Shown here piece after piece: positions 11,468 through 60,430 of a stretch of DNA of 64,000 nucleotides; position 1 is the first letter of the stretch; every line of letters starts with the position of its first letter. Source of the stretch: Candidatus Parcubacteria bacterium (GTDB taxonomy: Bacteria; Patescibacteriota; Minisyncoccia; Sungbacterales; SURF-37); assembly GCA_003599755.1 (NCBI GenBank), contig QZJO01000007.1:41221-105220 (forward strand), in the 5' to 3' direction. The position numbers and the translations under genes are program-made. The notes beneath the pieces are model-generated. The model did not search any database, was not told where the DNA came from, and saw nothing but the letters and a program-made list of their open reading frames with translations.

Positions 11468-11610
11468 CCCATGACCCTTCGACGCGACTCAGGGCGAGCA
11501 ACGAATATACCAAGACATATGCGCTATACTTTTCTCTCAACTACTCGTGGTGAGCCTGTGCTTCGACGTGCTCAGCATCTGCATCATGAGCGTAGTCGAA
11601 TGATCGAACC

Positions 11611-12906
11611 ATGAACAAGTTCCAGCTCGTATTCAGCATCGCGCTCGTCGTCATCATCGCGCTTGCCGTCATATTGTTGCTCCGAGGGTTCGGGGACGAT
11701 GGCACGAAAGCGCCGGAGTTCGAAATTACCGTGTGGGGGACTGACCCCGATGAAACGCGCTGGCGATCGCTGATCAATACCTATACCAAAGAACAGTCGC
11801 CCAACGCGAAAATCGAATACGTACCCAAAGATCCGCGTACGTACGAGGCCGAACTTTTGAACGCGCTCGCTTCCGGCGCGGGCCCGGACGCGTTTTTCTT
11901 GTCCAATACGCTCTTGGCCAAGCACCGCGACAAAGTCCAGCCGCTCCAGGAGCAATCGCTCGGCTATACCAAGCAATCGCTCAAGGCGGCGTTTCCGGAT
12001 GCCGTGGTGGATGCCGTCACGGGCCCCGACAATGAGCTCCTCGGCACGCCGTTGTATTTCGACACGCTCGCGCTCTTTTATAACCGCGATTATCTGAACA
12101 CGGCCAACATTCCGTTGCCGCCCGCGACCTGGGACGAACTCGTCAATCAAAGCCGGGCGCTGACGCGCTATGCCGAGACCGGAGCCATTCGCCGCTCGGG
12201 CGTCGCGATGGGCTCGTCGGGAAATGTCGCGCATGCGCACGAAATCATGGCGCTCTTGATCTATCAAAGCGGCGGCGACATCGTGAATTCCGCCAATCGG
12301 GCGAGCGCCCTCAACAGCCCCGAAACCGAAACCGCGCTCGGCTTTTATACCGCCTTCGTGGACCCGACGAAACGGAGCTTCAGCTGGAATGCGCTGTTCC
12401 CTCCGTCGATCGACGCGTTTTCCACGGGCGATGCCGCGTTCGTTCTGGGCTATGCCGCCGATGCCGAGCGCATCACGGCGCTGAATCCGCAGCTCAACTT
12501 TGACGTCGCGCCCGTGCCCCAGCCGACCGGTGCGAACATACGGATCAACATGGGCCGATTTGATATCATCGCGCTCTCGCGCCTGACCAAGGAAGCGAAC
12601 AATGCCTGGCATTTTCTGCTCTGGCTGCAAGAACGGGACGTACAGAAGCGCTACGCGGACGCGCGCGCCTTGCCGCCCGCGCGGCGCGACCTCATCGCGT
12701 CGCAGCCGCCGCGCGAATACCTTGCCGCGTTTTACGGACAAATCCTCTCGGCGCGCACGCTGCCGGTCGAGGCCGGCGACTCGCTCGCGCGCATCCTCGG
12801 TGATATGATTGATAGTGCGGCAACACGCCAGACGGAACTCGCGCAAGCCGTCCAACGCGCGCACCGGCAGCTTGCCGAAGCGCTCCGGCCGCCGGACAAC
12901 CCATAG
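11611..12906 (+). CDS. membrane-anchored extracellular solute-binding protein (family 1-like), orphan
   Basis: N-terminal TM anchor then periplasmic-binding-protein-like sequence; no adjacent permease or ATPase genes; stop is 9 nt before the first pilin gene. Confidence 0.5.
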   Translation: MNKFQLVFSIALVVIIALAVILLLRGFGDDGTKAPEFEITVWGTDPDETRWRSLINTYTKEQSPNAKIEYVPKDPRTYEAELLNALASGAGPDAFFLSNTLLAKHRDKVQPLQEQSLGYTKQSLKAAFPDAVVDAVTGPDNELLGTPLYFDTLALFYNRDYLNTANIPLPPATWDELVNQSRALTRYAETGAIRRSGVAMGSSGNVAHAHEIMALLIYQSGGDIVNSANRASALNSPETETALGFYTAFVDPTKRSFSWNALFPPSIDAFSTGDAAFVLGYAADAERITALNPQLNFDVAPVPQPTGANIRINMGRFDIIALSRLTKEANNAWHFLLWLQERDVQKRYADARALPPARRDLIASQPPREYLAAFYGQILSARTLPVEAGDSLARILGDMIDSAATRQTELAQAVQRAHRQLAEALRPPDNP

Positions 12907-12915
12907 ATTTCCGCC

Positions 12916-13359
12916 ATGCCCCGTATCTTCCGTATTGCGTTGTTCCTCACCGTGCTTGCGGTCTTTGTTCCCGTTTCGGCCGGCGCCCAAAGCGGCCTCG
13001 TACCCTGCACAATTACCCAGTGCCACATCTGCGATCTTGCGGAACTACTCAAGCGCGTCACGGACTTTTTCATCTTGCGCGTCGCGCTGCCCGGTTCCGC
13101 GCTCTTGTTCGCACTCGGCGGGATCATGCTCTTGATATCGGGCACGTCGGAACAGCGCCGCACGCAGGGCAAAACGATTATTTGGCGCACGGTCATCGGC
13201 ATCGTCATCATTCTGCTTTCATGGACATTCATCGATACGCTCATTAAAGTACTGACTGGAACCACCGCTGCTTCGGGGTCGGATACGTTCTATCCGGGTA
13301 AACTCGGTCCGTGGAACGAATTCAATCTAGAAAAATGCAAAGAAGGTTTCGCACCATGA
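12916..13359 (+). CDS. TrbC/VirB2-like pilin paralog 1
   Basis: Signal peptide (..FVPVSAGAQ), Cys pair (CTITQCHIC), then two TM helices separated by GTSEQRRTQGKTIIW; stop overlaps the next start (ATGA). Confidence 0.55.
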   Translation: MPRIFRIALFLTVLAVFVPVSAGAQSGLVPCTITQCHICDLAELLKRVTDFFILRVALPGSALLFALGGIMLLISGTSEQRRTQGKTIIWRTVIGIVIILLSWTFIDTLIKVLTGTTAASGSDTFYPGKLGPWNEFNLEKCKEGFAP

Positions 13360-13691
13360 TGGTCCGCACTGCGACACTCCTTACCTCCGTTCTCGCGTTC
13401 GCATCGCCCGTGCATGCGCAGACGGTTACTATTATCAATCCGCTCTGCCCTGGATCGACTTGTACGTTTGACGTTATTTTCGACCGCCTCACCAACTATG
13501 CGCTACTCGTGCTCGGGCCGATCGCCGTTATCATCATTCTTTGGGTCGGCTTTACGTATATGACAAGCGGCGGGAGCCCCGAGCGGATAAAGCAAGCCCA
13601 TCGGGCGCTTCTCTGGGCCATCGTCGGCATTGCCATCGTTCTTTTGGCCAAAGGCATATACGCGATTATCAAGACCGTCCTCGGCCCTTAG
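13356..13691 (+). CDS. TrbC/VirB2-like pilin paralog 2
   Basis: MMVRTATLLTSVLAFASPVHAQ signal peptide; CPGSTC; TM-SGGSPERIKQAHRALLW-TM. Confidence 0.6.
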   Translation: MMVRTATLLTSVLAFASPVHAQTVTIINPLCPGSTCTFDVIFDRLTNYALLVLGPIAVIIILWVGFTYMTSGGSPERIKQAHRALLWAIVGIAIVLLAKGIYAIIKTVLGP

Positions 13692-13692
13692 T

Positions 13693-14031
13693 ATGTCATC
13701 ATCAAAGCTCGCCCTTTTCGCGCTCTGCATCGGCATCATCGCCGCGCCGTTTTTCGCTGACGCCGCCATCACCTCCGCGTGCGATATCGTGACGCTCCTG
13801 AACCGCATCAAGGAATGGTTCGGCATCCTGGTCGGCATCATCGCGACGATTGCAATCCTCTACGCCGGCCTGTTGTTCATGACCGCGGCCGGCAGCGATG
13901 AGCAGATCACCAAAGCGAAATCCACGCTGCTCTGGGCATTGGTCGGCATCGCCGTCGCGCTGCTCGCCTCGGGAGTCGTGGCATTCGTGCAAACCATCGT
14001 CGGCGGCACCCTTCCCGCCAATTGCCCGTAA
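13693..14031 (+). CDS. TrbC/VirB2-like pilin paralog 3
   Basis: MSSSKLALFALCIGIIAAPFFADAA; TM-AAGSDEQITKAKSTLLW-TM; start is 2 nt after the previous stop. Confidence 0.6.
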   Translation: MSSSKLALFALCIGIIAAPFFADAAITSACDIVTLLNRIKEWFGILVGIIATIAILYAGLLFMTAAGSDEQITKAKSTLLWALVGIAVALLASGVVAFVQTIVGGTLPANCP

Positions 14032-14065
14032 CGCAGCCGACGCACCCATAAGTGAATTGCGCCCT

Positions 14066-14094
14066 TTGACGAACTTGGCAACTCTTTCTATGCT
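14066..14094 (+). promoter_or_regulatory. sigma70-like promoter for pilin paralog 4
   Basis: TTGACG (14066-14071), 17-nt spacer, TATGCT (14089-14094). Confidence 0.4.
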
Positions 14095-14186
14095 AGGAAT
14101 ACGGATTTTTGTTCATTCCGCAGGGTAGCCCTGCCTAAAGGTCGGCCCGATAGCGCATAATGTCAGTACTCATCATTCTCTCCACC

Positions 14187-14531
14187 ATGCAAAAAACCGT
14201 TCGCGCTTCACTCTTCGCCCTTGCTCTCCTTGCCGCTCCGTTCATGGCATCGGCCCAGATCGAGGACATCTGTGATGTTCTCACTCTCGTGGAACTCGTC
14301 CTGACCTGGTTCGGGATCCTGGTCTTCATCGTCGCGGTTATCTTCATTCTCTACGCCGGCTTCCTGTTTATTACGAGCGGCGGCAATGAAGAAACGCGGA
14401 AAAAAGCGAGCTCAACACTGCTCTGGGGCCTGATTGGCATCGCCGTCGCACTGCTTGCGACCAATGCCATTCCATTCGTCCAGGCAACCGTTGGCGGGCA
14501 AACATTCGACAACTGCGTCCCCAGCGTCTAA
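14187..14531 (+). CDS. TrbC/VirB2-like pilin paralog 4
   Basis: MQKTVRASLFALALLAAPFMASA signal peptide; TM-SGGNEETRKKASSTLLW-TM; followed by a perfect terminator. Confidence 0.6.
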   Translation: MQKTVRASLFALALLAAPFMASAQIEDICDVLTLVELVLTWFGILVFIVAVIFILYAGFLFITSGGNEETRKKASSTLLWGLIGIAVALLATNAIPFVQATVGGQTFDNCVPSV

Positions 14532-14552
14532 CCGCGCCCGGAAACGATACGA

Positions 14553-14588
14553 AAAGCAAAACGGCCCCTAGGGGCCGTTTTGCTTTTT
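14553..14588. terminator. rho-independent terminator after the pilin array
   Basis: aaaagcaaaacggcccc-ta-ggggccgttttgcttttt: 13-bp stem and T-run. Confidence 0.7.
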
Positions 14589-14608: not shown

Positions 14609-14632
14609 TCAGTGCGCGCCCGTCCCTTCGCT

Positions 14633-14714
14633 GCCGAGGTGGCGGAACTGGCATACGCGCAGGACTTAGAATCCTGTCCCGCAAGGGTTGTGGGTTCGAC
14701 TCCCACCCTCGGCA
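14633..14714 (+). tRNA. tRNA-Leu (TAG), long variable arm
   Basis: GCCGAGG..cuUAGaa..long extra arm..GGTTCGACTCC..CCTCGGC-A. Confidence 0.85.
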
Positions 14715-14817
14715 TGGATCGTTTATCGATAGAAGAGTAGCTATCGCGTTGGCCATTCTCACGTTTTGCCCGCGTCACGTATTTTACTCACGAAACGACT
14801 CGCATCCATTGCGACAA

Positions 14818-14853
14818 TGTACTACTATTACGCTATAGCGTAATAGTAGTACA
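14818..14853. promoter_or_regulatory. 36-bp perfect palindrome, putative operator, abutting the PaaX-like start codon
   Basis: tgtactactattacgcTATAGCgtaatagtagtaca; perfect dyad symmetry; last nt is the A of the ATG. Confidence 0.5.
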
Positions 14854-15416
14854 TGCAACGAAAAACGTGGTATTTTATTGGGAAAACTGTTCTTTCGATC
14901 ATCGGCACGGGTGCTCTTGTTTTGAGTGCCGCGGCTGTTCCAAACGCTGCACAGATGCTCGCTCCGTTAGTCGCCAAACGCCGCGGAAAAACGAATAGGC
15001 GTGCGCTTGAGCGTACAATCCATGCGCTGCAACGCCAGCGACTCATTGAATTCGTGCCTCATCACGGAAAAATTGTCATGCGGATTACCGAAGGTGGCAA
15101 GAAAAAATTGCGTGAATTTGACTTCGATACGATGTCGCTCGCGGTGCCGCAACACTGGAATAAACAATGGACCGTAATACTGTTTGATATTCCTGAAGAA
15201 AAGAAGTCTGCGCGGGACGCACTCAGAAGAAAACTACGGGATCTGCAATGCTATGCGCTCCATCGCAGCGTCTTCGTGCATCCAGCGGACGGACGCGATG
15301 AAATTGATTTCGTTATCCAGACATTCGGGATTCAAAACTACGTGATTCATTTTCGAACGCCATCCCTGGGCTATGGCGAGGGCAGGGCTCGCGCTCATTT
15401 CAAATTACTGCCATAG
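14853..15416 (+). CDS. PaaX-like transcriptional regulator with a predicted N-terminal TM segment
   Basis: Winged-helix-like ALERTIHALQRQRLIEF, then the PaaX C-terminal signature WNKQWTVILFDIPEEKKSARDALRRKLRDLQCYALHRSVFVHP. Confidence 0.5.
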   Translation: MQRKTWYFIGKTVLSIIGTGALVLSAAAVPNAAQMLAPLVAKRRGKTNRRALERTIHALQRQRLIEFVPHHGKIVMRITEGGKKKLREFDFDTMSLAVPQHWNKQWTVILFDIPEEKKSARDALRRKLRDLQCYALHRSVFVHPADGRDEIDFVIQTFGIQNYVIHFRTPSLGYGEGRARAHFKLLP

Positions 15417-38521: not shown

Positions 38522-39082
38522 ATGGCGGCGGCAACCATTCCAGACATCATGAAGGAATTCCAAGTGCCCCAATTCATCACCGTCGAAGACCGCATTGTCG
38601 GCCCGTTTACGCTGCGCCAATTTTTCTTCCTGCTCGGCGGCGCGTCCATTCTGCTCGTGGGCTGGTTTCTTTTGCCCCTGATCGTGTTTTTCCTGCTGGC
38701 GCTGCCCGCCGCAGCCGGCGTCGGCGCGCTTCCGTTTGCGAAAGTGCAGGGCTTGCCGCTTACCACCGTGCTTTCGAGCGCCATGAACTATTACACCCGC
38801 CCGCGCTTGTACGTATGGCGCGCCCTGCCGCCGAAAGGCACGGAACCCAAAGAATCCGCCGCGGCGGCGAAGGAACTCGAACAAGAGAACCAATTGCGCC
38901 GAATGGCCGGGCAGCAGCTGGCCGCGGCGCCGAAACCCGGAAGTACCGACACGACGCTTACCGAAAAGCGCCTCCAGGACCTTGCCTGGAGCTTGGACAT
39001 CAAGGAAACCGTTGAACGCCCGCTTCGCCAAGGCACCGCCTCGCCGACAGGCGGGTCCGGCGAGGCGAGCCGTCCCTCATAA
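38522..39082 (+). CDS. PrgI-like (VirB3 analogue) small membrane protein
   Basis: ATIPDIMKEFQVPQFITVEDRIVGPFTLRQFFFLLGGASILLVGWFLLPLIVFF pattern typical of PrgI/VirB3 proteins encoded just upstream of VirB4. Confidence 0.45.
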   Translation: MAAATIPDIMKEFQVPQFITVEDRIVGPFTLRQFFFLLGGASILLVGWFLLPLIVFFLLALPAAAGVGALPFAKVQGLPLTTVLSSAMNYYTRPRLYVWRALPPKGTEPKESAAAAKELEQENQLRRMAGQQLAAAPKPGSTDTTLTEKRLQDLAWSLDIKETVERPLRQGTASPTGGSGEASRPS

Positions 39083-39084
39083 CC

Positions 39085-39741
39085 ATGGCAACTCCTGCGC
39101 GCAAATCAGCCGTTACCCAGGACTTCGTCCTGATCGAATCCATTCGGGACGGCATTGTCCTTTTGAAAGACGGCGGCCTACGCGCCGTGCTTATGGCATC
39201 GTCCTTAAATTTTGCCTTGAAATCGGAAGAGGAGCAGGACGCGATCGTTTTCCAATACGAAAATTTCCTGAACTCGCTCGACTTTACCGTGCAATTCGTC
39301 GTCCATTCGCGGCGGCTCAATATCCAGCCGTACCTGGATACGCTTGCCGCGCGGCAGAACGAGGAGACGCAGGAACTCTTGCGCGTGCAAATCGCCGAAT
39401 ACATCGAATTCGTTCGTTCGTTCGTGGAACTTTCCGAAGTCGTATCCAAGACGTTTTACATTGTCGTGCCGTTCCAGCCCTCGATCGTCGAACAGCGCGC
39501 GGGACTCTTCACGAAATTCTTCGGCAGCGGAGCTAAAACCGCGGCAAGCGGCGCCGAAGATGATTTCGGCCATTACAAAAATCAGCTCTTGCAGCGCGTG
39601 GAGTCGGTCAGCTTGGGGCTCCGGCGGCTGGGACTGCGCGTCGTCGAACTCAACACCGAAGAGCTGATTGAGCTGTATTACAACATCTTCAATCCGGCCG
39701 AATCGCAGCGCGCGCAGATACCCGCGCAATCGCGCGAATAA
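39085..39741 (+). CDS. VirB4-family ATPase, N-terminal domain (separate reading frame)
   Basis: DGIVLLKDGGLRAVLMASSLNFALKSEEEQDAIVFQYENFLNSLDFTVQFVVHSRRL resembles the N-terminal domain of Gram-positive VirB4 (TraE/PrgJ) proteins; stops 2 nt before the ATPase ORF in a different frame. Confidence 0.45.
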   Translation: MATPARKSAVTQDFVLIESIRDGIVLLKDGGLRAVLMASSLNFALKSEEEQDAIVFQYENFLNSLDFTVQFVVHSRRLNIQPYLDTLAARQNEETQELLRVQIAEYIEFVRSFVELSEVVSKTFYIVVPFQPSIVEQRAGLFTKFFGSGAKTAASGAEDDFGHYKNQLLQRVESVSLGLRRLGLRVVELNTEELIELYYNIFNPAESQRAQIPAQSRE

Positions 39742-39743
39742 CC

Positions 39744-41558
39744 ATGGAATTCCCATCCCTCTTCGGAAAGAAAACCCAACCGGTCGAGGATCTGGCGCCC
39801 GTAGCGCCGGAGCAGATTTACCGCACCGGCGCGGCCACATTGCGCGACGTTATCGCTCCCGCGGCCCTCGAGGTCAATCCGAGCTTTATCCGCCTGGGCG
39901 AGAAATTCGTCCGGACCCTTTTCGTATTCTCGTATCCGCGGTATCTGGCGACCAACTGGTTCTCGCCGATCATCAATCTCGACAAGGTATTCGACATCAC
40001 GTTTTTCATCCATCCGGTGGATACGGCCATCGTTATGCGGCAACTCCGCAAACAGGTGGCGCGCGTGCAATCTCAGATCGCGATGCGCGAAGAAAAAGGG
40101 CAGGTGCGCGATCCACTCCTGGAAACCGCATATCAAGACCTCGAAGATCTGCGCGACCGCCTGCAGCAAGCGCGGGAACGCCTCTTCAATTTCGGCCTTT
40201 ATATTTCGCTCTACGCTTCCAAGGTAGAGGAGCTCGACCGATTGGAGAACGAAATGCGCGCGCTCTTAGAGGCCCGATTGGTCTACGTCAAACCTGCGCT
40301 GTTCCAGCAGGCCGAGGCCTTCCGATCATGCGTGCCGCTCGATACCGACGAGCTGCAGATCAGCACCTACCTCAATTCAGGGCCGGTATCGAGCACGTTT
40401 CCGTTCGTATCGTTCGACCTTACGTCCAACAAGGGGATTCTCTACGGCGTCAACCGCCACAACAACTCGCTCATCCTCTTCGATCGTTGGTCATTACCCA
40501 ATGCCAATTCCGTAACGTTCGCGACGTCCGGTGCGGGCAAAAGCTACGCGATGAAACTCGAGGTTTTACGCTCGCTGATGTTCGGCGTGCACGTCATCAT
40601 CATCGACCCCGAACGCGAATACCAGTATCTGGCCGAAGTGGTCGGCGGAGCGTACTTCAACATCTCGCTGACTTCGCCGAACCACATCAATCCGTTCGAT
40701 CTGCCCGTGCCCCGCGAAGACGAATCGCCGGCCGACGTGCTTCGTTCCAATATCATCAATTTGGTCGGATTTTTCCGGATTCTGCTCGGCGGCCTGACCC
40801 CCGAAGAAGACGCGCTTTTGGACCGCGCCATCACCGAAACATACGCCGCGCGCGACATCACGGCCGAATCCGACTTCGGCGCGATCACGCCGCCCACGCT
40901 TTCGGACCTCGCGCTCGTGGTCGCGAGCACCCAAGGAGGCGAACAGATCGCGACGCGCATCAAGAAATATACCGAGGGCACTTGGTCCGGGTTCTTGAAC
41001 CAGCAGACGAATCTCGATATCCAAAACCGCCTCGTGGTCTTTTCCGTGCGGGATATGGAAGAGGAATTGCGGCCGGTCGCGATGTATATCGTACTCCACT
41101 ACATCTGGAACATCGTGCGCACCGATCTCAAGAAGCGGCTCCTGGTCGTGGACGAGGCCTGGTGGCTCATGCGCACCGAGGACGGCGCATCATTCCTCTA
41201 CGGCATCGCCAAGCGCGCCCGCAAATACTTCCTCGGCCTCGCGACGATCACGCAGGACGTCGCCGATTTCATGGATTCGCCCTACGGCAAGCCGATCGTG
41301 ACGAACTCCTCGCTGCAGCTATTGCTTAAGCAATCACCGGCCACGATCCAGAAAGTCGTCGAGACGTTCAACCTGACCGAAGAAGAAAAATTCCTGCTGT
41401 TGGAATCCGAGGTAGGGGAAGGGATCTTTTTCGCCGGCCTCAAGCACGTAGCGATTAAAATTATCGCGTCCTACAGCGAAGACCAGGTCATCACGTCCGA
41501 CCCGCAGCAATTGATGCTCATCAAAAAGGCGCGCGAAGAATTCGATCAGAAACAATAA
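39744..41558 (+). CDS. VirB4/TrbE/CagE-family conjugal-transfer ATPase (C-terminal 604 aa)
   Basis: RTLFVFSYPRYLATNWFSPII.., Walker A FATSGAGKSYAMKLEV, Walker B LLVVDEAWWLM. Confidence 0.7.
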   Translation: MEFPSLFGKKTQPVEDLAPVAPEQIYRTGAATLRDVIAPAALEVNPSFIRLGEKFVRTLFVFSYPRYLATNWFSPIINLDKVFDITFFIHPVDTAIVMRQLRKQVARVQSQIAMREEKGQVRDPLLETAYQDLEDLRDRLQQARERLFNFGLYISLYASKVEELDRLENEMRALLEARLVYVKPALFQQAEAFRSCVPLDTDELQISTYLNSGPVSSTFPFVSFDLTSNKGILYGVNRHNNSLILFDRWSLPNANSVTFATSGAGKSYAMKLEVLRSLMFGVHVIIIDPEREYQYLAEVVGGAYFNISLTSPNHINPFDLPVPREDESPADVLRSNIINLVGFFRILLGGLTPEEDALLDRAITETYAARDITAESDFGAITPPTLSDLALVVASTQGGEQIATRIKKYTEGTWSGFLNQQTNLDIQNRLVVFSVRDMEEELRPVAMYIVLHYIWNIVRTDLKKRLLVVDEAWWLMRTEDGASFLYGIAKRARKYFLGLATITQDVADFMDSPYGKPIVTNSSLQLLLKQSPATIQKVVETFNLTEEEKFLLLESEVGEGIFFAGLKHVAIKIIASYSEDQVITSDPQQLMLIKKAREEFDQKQ

Positions 41559-43401: not shown

Positions 43402-43788
43402 ATGCGAGCGATACTCTTTATAGGCCTTGCGCTGCTCCTCGCTTTTGGGCCGCTTGCTGCGCTTGCCGCCGGGCCTGTCGGCAACCCCGCCCTCACGGGT
43501 CCGCAAGACGTTCAGATCAATACGACCAAGTACCTCGGCAATCTCTACCTCTGGATGCTTGGATTCGTCGGCATTGCCGCGTTTTTCGCGATCGTGTACG
43601 GTGGTGTGCTCTACATGTTCTCCGGCCCAAACATCACGAAAGTTGACCAGGCCAAGACCTGGATCCAAAACGCCATTTTCGGCATTCTGCTTGCCGCCGC
43701 AAGCTACGTGATCCTCAATACCATTAATCCGGCTCTGGTAAATCATAACTTTGATCTCGAAACAATGATCAAGGATGCGCTTAAATAG
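43402..43788 (+). CDS. TrbC/VirB2-like pilin paralog 5
   Basis: Signal peptide MRAILFIGLALLLAFGPLAALAAGP, two TM helices separated by SGPNITKVDQAKTWIQN. Confidence 0.5.
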   Translation: MRAILFIGLALLLAFGPLAALAAGPVGNPALTGPQDVQINTTKYLGNLYLWMLGFVGIAAFFAIVYGGVLYMFSGPNITKVDQAKTWIQNAIFGILLAAASYVILNTINPALVNHNFDLETMIKDALK

Positions 43789-58747: not shown

Positions 58748-60430
58748 TTACGTTTCGCCGACTACTCGCTCGACCTCGGCGAGATCGGTGATACCGGCCA
58801 ATACTTTCAGGATGCCGTCCTGGCGCATGGTGATCTGGCCCTGCGCGTGGGCGGCTTTTTTCATGTCTACTTCGGAGGGCTTATGGAACACGAGCTGCTC
58901 GACGGTGTCGTCTACCAGGATGATTTCAAATACGCCGATGCGGCCTTTGTAGCCGGTGCCATGGCAGTGCTCGCAGCCGACGGGCCGGACAAGCATGAGT
59001 TTTTCGGGGAGGTCGGGGCGCTTGACGCTTTTGGGCAGGCCGTCGAGTTCCTTTTTAATGGCAGCCACCATGGCAGCATCGGCCGGCGCTTCCTTGCGGC
59101 ATTTGGGACAGAGGCGGCGCACGAGGCGCTGGGCGATCGAGACGTTCAGGGCAGGCGCGATAATGGCCGGATCTACGCCAAGATCGATCAAGCGGGGGAT
59201 GGTACCGGCGGCATTGTTGGTATGGAGCGTGGAAAATACCAGATGCCCGGTCAGCGCGGCGTTCATGGCCGTATGCGCGGTTTCCAGATCGCGCATTTCG
59301 CCGACGAGAATCACATCCGGATCCTGGCGGAGAATCGAGCGCAGGCCCCCGGCGAAGTCATAGCCGCGTTCGGTATTGATTTGAGTCTGTTCGATGCCGA
59401 CCAGGTGGTATTCGATCGGGTCTTCGAGCGTGATGATTTTTACGTCGGACGTATGTACTTCGCGGAGGAACGCATAGAGCGTTGTGGTCTTGCCCGAACC
59501 GGTCGGCCCGGTGGTCACGATCATGCCGTTGGGTTTTTTGAGCTCGCGGGCGAGCGCATCAAGAATCCAGGGTTGCATGCCAAGTTCGCCGAATCCGACG
59601 GCAATGGACTTGGGGTTCAGGATGCGGAGCACTATGTTCTCGCCGTACGGCCCCGGCAGCGTAGAGGCGCGCACTTCGATCTCGACCTCACCCGTATGAA
59701 TGGTGAAGCGGCCGTCCTGTCCTTTCTCTTGGATGTTCAGCTTCAGACCGGAGACGAGTTTAATGCGCGAGAGCAAAAACTTGTAGGCCGTCGGCGGCAG
59801 CATCGCAATGTCGTTCAATACGCCGTCCAGGCGGTAGCGCAAACGCGCTTGGTCGGCTTGCGGTTCGAGATGGATATCGGACGAATCGGTCTCCAGCGCT
59901 CCGGCAATGATGATTTCCAATACCTCGGTAATGCGCTGGCGGTCCACCGCGGCCAAGAGCTTCCCGATATCGGCGATGGATTTTACTTTGGCGCGAAATT
60001 CCGTGAGACGCGCGTCCGAGACGCTGACTTCGCCAGCGATCCGAGCGCTTTTGCGCGCGACGCTGGCATAGCCGGCCCAGGCCTTTTCCAGGCTCGTGCG
60101 CGATACCAAAAAAAGATTGTACGTGTAGCGGTTCGCGGAAAGCCGTTCGAGGGTTTTTTTGGCCGCTGGCGCGTTGAGGTCCCGCACCGCGATGTCGAGT
60201 TTGCGGCCCGTGCCCTGGATGACCGCCAGGCCGGCTCTCTTCGCTTCGGCTTCGGGTACCAGCCCGAGCACGTCCACGTTGACGGGGATGGCCGAAAGAT
60301 CCGCATACGGAATATGCGCCCGCTCCGCGAGGAGTTTGGTCACTTCCTCTTCCTCCTCATGGCGGAGTTTTGCGAGCCGTTCGACTTGTTTTTGTTCTTC
60401 GAAGATCGGCACGGGTCTGGAGCGCGGCAC
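58748..60430 (-). CDS. pilB: type II/IV secretion (type IV pilus assembly) ATPase, GspE/PilB family
   Basis: Walker A VTTGPTGSGKTTTL, Asp box, Walker B ILVGEMRD, His box, tetra-Cys CPKC..CEHC. Confidence 0.85.
   Translation of the reverse strand: MPRSRPVPIFEEQKQVERLAKLRHEEEEEVTKLLAERAHIPYADLSAIPVNVDVLGLVPEAEAKRAGLAVIQGTGRKLDIAVRDLNAPAAKKTLERLSANRYTYNLFLVSRTSLEKAWAGYASVARKSARIAGEVSVSDARLTEFRAKVKSIADIGKLLAAVDRQRITEVLEIIIAGALETDSSDIHLEPQADQARLRYRLDGVLNDIAMLPPTAYKFLLSRIKLVSGLKLNIQEKGQDGRFTIHTGEVEIEVRASTLPGPYGENIVLRILNPKSIAVGFGELGMQPWILDALARELKKPNGMIVTTGPTGSGKTTTLYAFLREVHTSDVKIITLEDPIEYHLVGIEQTQINTERGYDFAGGLRSILRQDPDVILVGEMRDLETAHTAMNAALTGHLVFSTLHTNNAAGTIPRLIDLGVDPAIIAPALNVSIAQRLVRRLCPKCRKEAPADAAMVAAIKKELDGLPKSVKRPDLPEKLMLVRPVGCEHCHGTGYKGRIGVFEIILVDDTVEQLVFHKPSEVDMKKAAHAQGQITMRQDGILKVLAGITDLAEVERVVGET

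Follow-up and report, generated by a model that had tools for sequence, protein, structure and literature searches.

Positions 12,916–14,531 of a 64,000-nucleotide stretch of contig QZJO01000007.1 from Candidatus Parcubacteria bacterium (the whole stretch is hereafter called the window) carry four small, consecutive genes that a preliminary description, made from the sequence alone, had read as VirB2-like pilins. The question raised by this locus is what such a row of divergent copies might build, and with which partners. We propose, at a probability of roughly 0.7 for the explanation as a whole, that it is a chromosomal array of divergent VirB2-like pilins whose products are exported and assembled by a type IV secretion system (T4SS) into a surface filament or conduit, with the sugar-binding protein (SBP) encoded directly upstream as a partner. 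A fifth paralog is encoded elsewhere in the window. Coordinates and domain scores of these and other features are collected in Table 1.

Family membership was assessed from whole-protein scores against two Pfam models, PF18895 (T4SS_pilin; gathering score 26.6 bits) and PF04956 (TrbC/VirB2; cut-off 27.9 bits). All five paralogs reach PF18895, paralog 5 exactly at the cut-off, and paralog 2 also passes PF04956 (Table 1); comparison with hidden Markov models thus upholds the VirB2/TrbC relationship proposed in the preliminary description. Against PF04956, paralogs 1, 3, 4, and 5 score 16.4, 21.7, 20.2, and 14.8 bits, respectively—below the cut-off, with nearly the whole model aligned. A profile built from the five paralogs and searched against the six-frame translation of the window recovered exactly these five genes, the next match having E = 1, and the same profile found only a chance match among PDB sequences (E = 0.49). 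On these sequence scores, the assignment of the five paralogs to the family is far beyond chance, and the genes are identified as homologs of the VirB2/TrbC pilin superfamily.

The predicted proteins also have the build expected of VirB2-type pilins, namely a signal peptide followed by two hydrophobic helices with a polar or charged loop between them. Each N-terminus is basic, then hydrophobic, and ends in a small-x-small site at which cleavage is predicted (in paralogs 1–5, respectively, AGA↓Q after A24, VHA↓Q after A21, ADA↓A after A24, ASA↓Q after A32, and ALA↓A after A22), and hydropathy reveals two further hydrophobic stretches in each paralog, separated by a short polar or charged loop. 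An AlphaFold model of paralog 3 (pLDDT 73) comprises a signal helix (H3–21) and a hairpin formed by H29–64 and H69–103. The loop pattern SGGS-PE..K fits paralogs 2–4 well and paralogs 1 and 5 loosely. Of the common architecture originally described, the signal peptide and the two hydrophobic helices were therefore found in all five paralogs, whereas the uniform linker (SGG-x-E...K...LLW) holds well for paralogs 2–4 only and the common cysteine pair does not extend to all copies.

The five paralogs are divergent copies, with pairwise identities of 28–38%, rising to 54.5% between paralogs 3 and 4. The DNA of paralogs 3 and 4 is approximately 60% identical; therefore, their duplication is not recent. 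Arrangements of this kind have been described previously for Patescibacteria (PMC12102498, PMC10633639, bioRxiv 10.1101/258137). In a survey of 3,035 genomes, VirB2-like pilins were present in 1,948 assemblies and formed 441 arrays of 2–11 genes; Patescibacterial PF18895/VirB2 arrays occurred in 383 assemblies, with a mean identity of 25% and a maximum of 54%, and were suggested to serve adaptation to different hosts (PMC12102498). Structure clusters specific to freshwater have also been reported to have PF18895 as their dominant domain. Quinonero-Coronel et al. (2025) define an array by at least two pilin genes in tandem (or with one gene between them), a VirB4 in the genome, and low identity. 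The present locus, with four tandem genes, a VirB4 homolog, identities of 28–54.5%, and an origin in Parcubacteria, is an ordinary member of this described and very large class. It shares its Pfam family with the other Patescibacterial arrays—SEML1_0014–0019 of Southlakia epibionticum, the "array of small signal-peptide proteins" of Nanosynbacter lyticus TM7x, and the 441 catalogued examples—together with tandem, same-strand genes of approximately 100–150 aa, signal peptides, low identity, and a chromosomal monoderm-type T4SS with PrgI/VirB3 and VirB4 near dnaA.

That T4SS is encoded by an operon spanning about 34.7–45 kb of the window, with dnaA beyond it and a KsgA gene upstream. Paralog 5 lies within the operon, accompanied by PrgI/VirB3 and VirB4 homologs beside dnaA, which bears out the claim that a fifth copy resides in a T4SS-like operon. 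The T4SS of Patescibacteria has been characterized as chromosomal, monoderm-type (MPF-FATA-like), often located near dnaA, and devoid of a relaxase; the position of the window operon beside dnaA, which puts it close to the replication origin, agrees with this published picture (PMC12102498). The VirB4-like ATPase is split over two adjacent open reading frames (ORFs) in different frames, which may reflect a naturally divided gene, a frameshift, or an error in the assembly. The four-gene array is separated from the T4SS genes by about 21–27 kb. In S. epibionticum, the pilin series of the T4SS cluster was essential in transposon sequencing (Tn-seq), for epibiotic growth, and SEML1_0014–0019 match PF18895 in the supplementary table of that study (PMC10633639). 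The Southlakia array sits inside its T4SS cluster, behind a VirB6-like gene and with no SBP, unlike the array of the window, which is remote from its T4SS and follows a gene for a MalE-like SBP.

Turning to this SBP, the AlphaFold model is of high confidence (pLDDT 94) and contains an N-terminal helix (H3–27) that is predicted to remain uncleaved and to anchor the protein in the membrane. A Foldseek comparison with the PDB gave E values of 5e-26 to 1e-21 and template-modelling (TM) scores of 0.7–0.84, the best matches being receptors for maltodextrin, cyclodextrin, beta-glucan (sophoro-), and cello-oligosaccharides. In fold and in family (SBP_bac_1/8), the protein thus resembles the SBPs of CUT1 oligosaccharide importers such as MalE and the cyclodextrin-, beta-glucan-, and cello-oligosaccharide-binding proteins. 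It departs from them in its predicted uncleaved anchor, in the link of its gene to a T4SS pilin array, and in its surroundings: no gene for an ATP-binding cassette (ABC) permease or ATPase adjoins the SBP gene in the window or in 18 related loci, and none was found among ten mid-size ORFs of the window. Upstream genes in the relatives that were considered as candidate permeases were ruled out, those of 290 aa being NTP_transferases and those of 120–150 aa HSP20 proteins.

The 18 related loci (L001 and L004–L020) were retrieved via the SBP alone. One came from species genomes, with 51% global SBP identity (50% over the best tblastn segment); eleven came from metagenomes, with 27–30% SBP identity and a GC content of 33–49%; and six came from an exact look-up of homologs, with 31–49% identity, including Sungbacteria and Yanofskybacteria. 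PF18895-like genes lie directly downstream of the SBP gene and on the same strand in all 18, across SBP identities of 27–51% and GC contents of 33–50%. The SBP and pilin genes overlap or are separated by no more than 2 nt in 14 of these loci, and arrays that are not cut off comprise 3–6 PF18895-like genes. Upstream of the SBP gene, at least three contexts were found: gyrA with a methyltransferase gene, HSP20 with NTP_transferase, and ClpB. Downstream, the neighbor of the SBP–pilin module is often a convergent gene for a PilB-like ATPase.

The preliminary description had treated the SBP gene as an orphan directly preceding the array. That emphasis cannot be maintained, as the conservation just described indicates that the SBP gene is a partner of such arrays rather than an incidental neighbor. 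The argument lies in the persistence of the adjacency while the genomic context changes, and not in the spacing. As the Southlakia array lacks an SBP of this kind, the coupling is a Parcubacteria-type variant. No mention of SBP–pilin coupling was found in the key papers on these arrays or by full-text search, and while the pilin array itself is already known, the adjacency looks new. Two further observations concern the neighbors. A PilB-like homolog is encoded close downstream of, and convergent to, the SBP–pilin array in eight loci (L007–L014), where genes of type IV pili and T4SS pilins are therefore neighbors; the window itself encodes a PilB/GspE-like ATPase at a distance (58748–60430, minus strand; T2SSE 391.6 bits). 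An HSP20 gene neighbors the Southlakia array (SEML1_0020) and is also found upstream of the module in several Parcubacteria loci (among the upstream genes of L007–L014).

Gene spacing within the locus suggests how it may be expressed. The SBP gene stops (12906) 9 nt before paralog 1, paralogs 1 and 2 overlap by ATGA (13356–13359), and paralogs 2 and 3 are separated by 1 nt. These intervals, reported earlier, are read directly in the sequence and are compatible with the translational coupling suggested for them; the SBP gene and paralogs 1–3 (9, −4, and 1 nt) probably belong to a single unit with translational coupling. Only one gap of notable length (128 nt) interrupts the array, namely before paralog 4. 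It contains no structured RNA (z = 0.5), and an Rfam scan yielded nothing but two tRNAs. Paralog 4 more likely starts at ATG 14187 than at 14160, because its first nine residues have no counterpart in the aligned homologs. The array is closed by a palindrome (Table 1) that is an intrinsic terminator of the bidirectional type, and the perfect terminator of the preliminary description was thus recovered. Paralog 3 and the upstream SBP have identical counterparts in a Candidatus Parcubacteria bacterium metagenome-assembled genome (C4552_01620 being paralog 3).

The gap before paralog 4 had also been said to hold a promoter of its own. The sigma-70-like motif is indeed present, but a promoter scan covering 3.7 kb found two such sites, where shuffled sequence would be expected to give 1.9; because this frequency is at the chance rate, the motif alone is not evidence of a promoter. 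The equivalent gap of L015, a Sungbacteria relative, contains a similar motif (TTGACC-17-TATATT), whereas no comparable motif was found in the equivalent gap of L001; the promoter scan likewise found none upstream of the SBP gene. Paralog 4 may be transcribed from its own promoter.

The cysteines, which had been described as a pair just past the cleavage site of each of the four array pilins, in fact form several patterns. Such a pair is present in paralog 2 (C31 and C36) and, in part, in paralog 1, where C31, C36, and C39 (C-x4-C-x2-C) are joined by C141 in the tail. Paralogs 3 and 4 instead have one cysteine after the signal peptide (Cys30, window 13780; Cys38, window 14271) and another at or near the C-terminus (Cys111, window 14023; Cys119, window 14514), and paralog 5 has none. 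The 3+1 pattern of paralog 1 is kept in L001, L015, L017 (with wider spacing), L019, and L020, and the N- and C-terminal cysteines of paralogs 3 and 4 are kept in P0002–P0004, L001, L015 (two genes), and L018. In the VirB2-type hairpin, both ends lie on the same, external side, so that a disulfide tying the two ends of paralogs 3 and 4 is plausible. Their terminal cysteines may accordingly be braced by a disulfide, within or between subunits. By analogy, such a bond could be a functional counterpart of the head-to-tail cyclization of the T-pilin and TrbC.

The positions of these types within the arrays are conserved as well. The paralog 1-type pilin (C-x4-8-C-x2-C plus a tail cysteine) comes first in L001, L015, L019, and L020, and also, with its wider cysteine spacing, in L017; the paralog 3/4-type, with N-terminal and C-terminal cysteines, comes last in L001 and L015. 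Several orthologs of paralog 1 are extended. The ortholog in L018 (5355–6461) has a C-terminal SLT lytic transglycosylase domain, and those in L001 (5234–6235), L017 (5305–6312), and L020 (5299–6195) have cysteine-rich C-terminal regions of approximately 170–200 aa. The first pilins of more distant arrays bear N-terminal additions such as fn3, the domain carried by the first pilin of L004 (6338–7759). The L001 extension aligns weakly with that of L020; an interpretation of it as an M15/LAS-type peptidase was dropped, as it has no Pfam match beyond PF18895 and no PDB match. Paralog 1 of the window, of which P0070 is a close ortholog, has a tail of 35 residues with a conserved GPWN...C motif and represents a short version of the module-carrying type. 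Because its orthologs carry additional C-terminal modules, paralog 1 is probably a specialized minor subunit.

Relatives also provide a view of how pilin units may be combined. A profile search returned 79,836 representative clusters at E ≤ 0.001, of which the best 148 (P0005–P0152) were inspected. Among these, 146 contain 2–13 pilin units per polypeptide, although ranking by summed score favors multi-unit proteins, so that the list gives no frequency. Examples are P0005 (606 aa, seven units), P0012 (455 aa, five units), and P0010 (1775 aa, 13–17 units). Successive units lie a median of 89 aa apart, which equals the length of a mature pilin, and each of the four fused proteins read closely has just one signal peptide, at its N-terminus. 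These appear to be natural "poly-pilins", of which no description was found in the papers searched. As units are fused within one protein, different units can work side by side, and mixed assembly is favored over switching between copies.

From homology, architecture, gene order, and conservation, we infer the following course of events. Each precursor would be exported through the Sec pathway, and signal peptidase I would cleave it after the small-x-small site, leaving a mature helical hairpin of approximately 90 residues. This hairpin would rest in the membrane, its two ends facing outwards and its short charged loop facing inwards. A domesticated monoderm-type T4SS, represented by PrgI/VirB3, VirB4, and the fifth pilin 21–27 kb downstream, would then extract and polymerize the hairpins, placing several paralogs in one surface filament or conduit at the site of contact with a host. 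The SBP gene and paralogs 1–3 would be co-translated, paralog 4 possibly being expressed from its own promoter in addition, and the SBP would act as a glycan- or oligosaccharide-binding partner of the filament.

Several points weigh against this proposal. Besides the ranking bias of the fused-pilin list, the classical TrbC/VirB2 Pfam model is passed by paralog 2 only, and a coupling of the array to the distant T4SS would follow solely from homology and the Southlakia precedent. In L015, L018, and L019, the SBP gene also shares an overlap with the methyltransferase gene upstream of it; gene overlap is common in these compact genomes, and tight spacing is therefore weak evidence of a functional link. 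To our knowledge, no filament, processing site, disulfide, or transcript is on record for this organism or for any Parcubacteria. Possibly, the hairpins do not form an extracellular pilus but stay in the membrane as a ring or channel-lining part of the T4SS or of another envelope complex, in which case "pilin" would denote homology only. Neither monoderms nor Patescibacteria have so far been seen to form a T4SS pilus (PMC12857230); with up to 13–17 hairpins fused in one chain, some relatives would be polytopic membrane proteins of very large size whose extraction into a filament is hard to picture; structure-based annotation of the Southlakia pilins also matches F-ATPase subunit c-like hairpins; and the fold searches made here were non-specific and cannot discriminate. 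We nevertheless regard retention in the membrane as unlikely, given the significant homology of paralog 2 to VirB2/TrbC pilus subunits and the SLT (L018) and fn3 (L004) modules, of extracellular enzyme or adhesion type, on some paralog 1-type subunits, which fit surface display. Moreover, both termini lie on one face in VirB2/F-type pili, making head-to-tail fusion compatible with a filament.

A filament could still be built from one copy at a time. Switching between alternative major pilins, used singly or in changing ratios to suit different hosts or to evade recognition by hosts or phages, has been proposed for Patescibacteria (PMC12102498), as it has for the VirB2 paralogs of Bartonella and Anaplasma, and the strong divergence of the paralogs (28–38% identity) would agree with it, as would the promoter-like motif before paralog 4 and its counterpart in the same gap of L015. 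That motif, however, stands at chance level, and the SBP gene and paralogs 1–3 are most simply co-expressed. A repeat search of the array found no invertible element or recombination repeats—only short codon-level similarity between paralogs and the terminator palindrome—and the conservation of orthologous positions between genomes, with the paralog 1-type first and the 3/4-type last, points to fixed, distinct roles. Together with the covalent fusions, which argue for co-assembly, this makes switching improbable; most likely, the paralogs do not substitute for one another but are built together into a single heteromeric structure. The role of the SBP is less clear-cut. It could be the receptor of an ordinary ABC importer, with the permease and ATPase genes located elsewhere, and its position could reflect a conserved order among genes for abundant envelope proteins, with no mechanistic tie; the adjacency to pilin genes could then be inherited synteny, with the SBP serving a distant ABC transporter. 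In favor of such an importer are its complete MalE-like architecture, modelled with high confidence and containing many invariant aromatic residues like functional sugar SBPs, the naming of homologs as "multiple sugar transport system substrate-binding protein", the Southlakia array that lacks this SBP, and the general overlap of neighboring genes. This is a real possibility, though one towards which we do not lean, since the adjacency holds in 18 of 18 loci, down to 27% SBP identity and through at least three upstream contexts in which other neighbors change, and no permease or ATPase gene adjoins the SBP gene in any of them. We consider the SBP to be most likely a surface binder of glycans or oligosaccharides that works with the filament, in host recognition or substrate capture, and not part of an adjacent ABC importer. 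The further step, in which the SBP would be a dedicated part of the Parcubacterial T4SS–pilin apparatus and would form one module with the array, the SBP recognizing glycans of the host surface or capturing oligosaccharides derived from the host and a heteromeric, possibly disulfide-braced filament or conduit, whose paralog 1-type subunit has wall-cutting modules in relatives, connecting to the host, is offered tentatively, as an idea that we ourselves hold to be doubtful.

Comparison with characterized systems places the proposed filament more closely. Like VirB2 (the Agrobacterium T-pilin), TrbC (RP4), and TraA (F), the paralogs are small precursors with a signal peptide, two hydrophobic helices, and a short charged loop. 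Those systems have one major pilin plus VirB5, whereas several paralogs occur here; there is no sign of cyclization or acetylation systems (TraF, TraX), and paralogs 3 and 4 have terminal cysteines instead. A further difference is that the present array occurs in a monoderm, whose machine is of the MPF-FATA-like type and would normally lack a pilin (PMC12102498); in a recent review, Patescibacterial pilins are named as the one exception to the rule of pilin-less monoderm T4SSs, and a pilus or conduit for uptake from the host has been speculated upon (PMC12857230). Several divergent VirB2 copies in tandem are also known from other host-associated bacteria, Bartonella and Anaplasma phagocytophilum (PMC12102498). 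These, however, are diderm animal pathogens in which variation is tied to immune evasion, whereas nothing suggests alternation in the present array and its relatives fuse their units.

Precedents exist for a functional tie between extracytoplasmic SBPs and T4SSs, namely ChvE–VirA in Agrobacterium and PrgZ of pCF10. ChvE signals via a kinase, and PrgZ delivers a peptide to the permease Opp; both are regulatory and belong to SBP families different from that of the window SBP. In contrast to these systems, no kinase or regulator is linked to the locus, except for a gene encoding a PaaX-like protein downstream of the tRNA.

The wider surroundings of the array are of a housekeeping nature (gyrA, a methyltransferase gene, tRNA-Leu, the PaaX-like gene, tRNA-Trp, L33, and YceG), and the four-gene array lies outside any mobile element. 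The putative PaaX-like regulator (PaaX_M 71.5 bits) is encoded at 14853–15416, just past tRNA-Leu, and is kept at the same place in L001 (7894–8550), with 33% identity. The gyrA homolog of L001 (73–3255) encodes 1060 aa, compared with 819 aa in the window, and probably carries an intein insertion, because the extra N-terminal part ends in an intein-like "...VHNS" junction. Long antisense ORFs run over the SBP and pilin genes (e.g., 11584–13026, minus strand, 480 aa). They have no supporting homology, whereas the plus-strand genes have homologs and domain matches, and they were treated as high-GC artefacts; such ORFs are typical of DNA with a GC content of 59%, the value for the window. A naive rule based on ORF length would prefer these antisense ORFs (up to 480 aa) to the real genes.

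Table 1. Features of the window, with positions counted from its first nucleotide
Feature	Position	Strand	Remarks
SBP_bac_1 / MalE-like oligosaccharide-binding protein	11611–12906	+	431 aa; SBP_bac_1 84.6 bits, SBP_bac_8 78.3 bits
Pilin paralog 1	12916–13359	+	147 aa; PF18895 29.7 bits
Pilin paralog 2	13356–13691	+	111 aa; PF18895 46.8 bits, PF04956 32.5 bits
Pilin paralog 3	13693–14031	+	112 aa; PF18895 50.6 bits; NCBI hypothetical protein C4552_01620
Sigma-70-like motif TTGACG-17-TATGCT	14066–14094	+	9/12 match; in the gap between paralogs 3 and 4
Pilin paralog 4	14160–14531	+	123 aa (114 aa from ATG 14187); PF18895 40.5 bits
Terminator	14552–14587		perfect 18+18 nt palindrome with A/U-rich flanks; −34.1 kcal/mol, z = −5.1 (RNA fold)
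tRNA-Leu	14632–14715		directly beyond the terminator
PrgI/VirB3-like	38522–39082	+	PrgI 39.4 bits
VirB4-like ATPase, N-terminal ORF	39085–39741	+	218 aa; weak TraC_F_IV match, 20.5 bits
VirB4-like ATPase, P-loop ORF	39744–41558	+	604 aa; P-loop_TraG 97.1 bits, AAA_10 44.9 bits
Pilin paralog 5	43402–43788	+	128 aa; PF18895 26.6 bits; five-member profile 1e-43 (paralog 5 is part of the profile)
dnaA	47086–48471	+	Bac_DnaA 220.8 bits

A large part of bacterial diversity is accounted for by Patescibacteria, which live on other cells. Their chromosomal T4SS with its pilin array is among the few systems shown to be essential for this lifestyle, in Southlakia, and we know of no substrate or receptor for it. 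The locus described here adds nothing new on the existence of such arrays. Its leads are the SBP, the terminal cysteine pair, and the fused pilins of relatives. The coupling to the SBP, the terminal cysteine pair, and the module-carrying first pilin, of which no mention was found in the array papers searched, are modest additions, and the SBP-linked form is possibly an undescribed variant. The terminal cysteine pair may play the role that backbone cyclization has in classical T-pilins, and the fused multi-unit pilins bear on whether paralogs build one mixed filament. The SBP is a candidate for the ligand-recognition part, genetically tied to arrays across Parcubacteria. If the link is functional, a solute receptor would here be paired, unusually, with a secretion machine; and if SBP and array do form one module, an SBP would belong with type IV secretion rather than with an ABC transporter, which would fit the uptake role speculated for the essential Patescibacterial T4SS.

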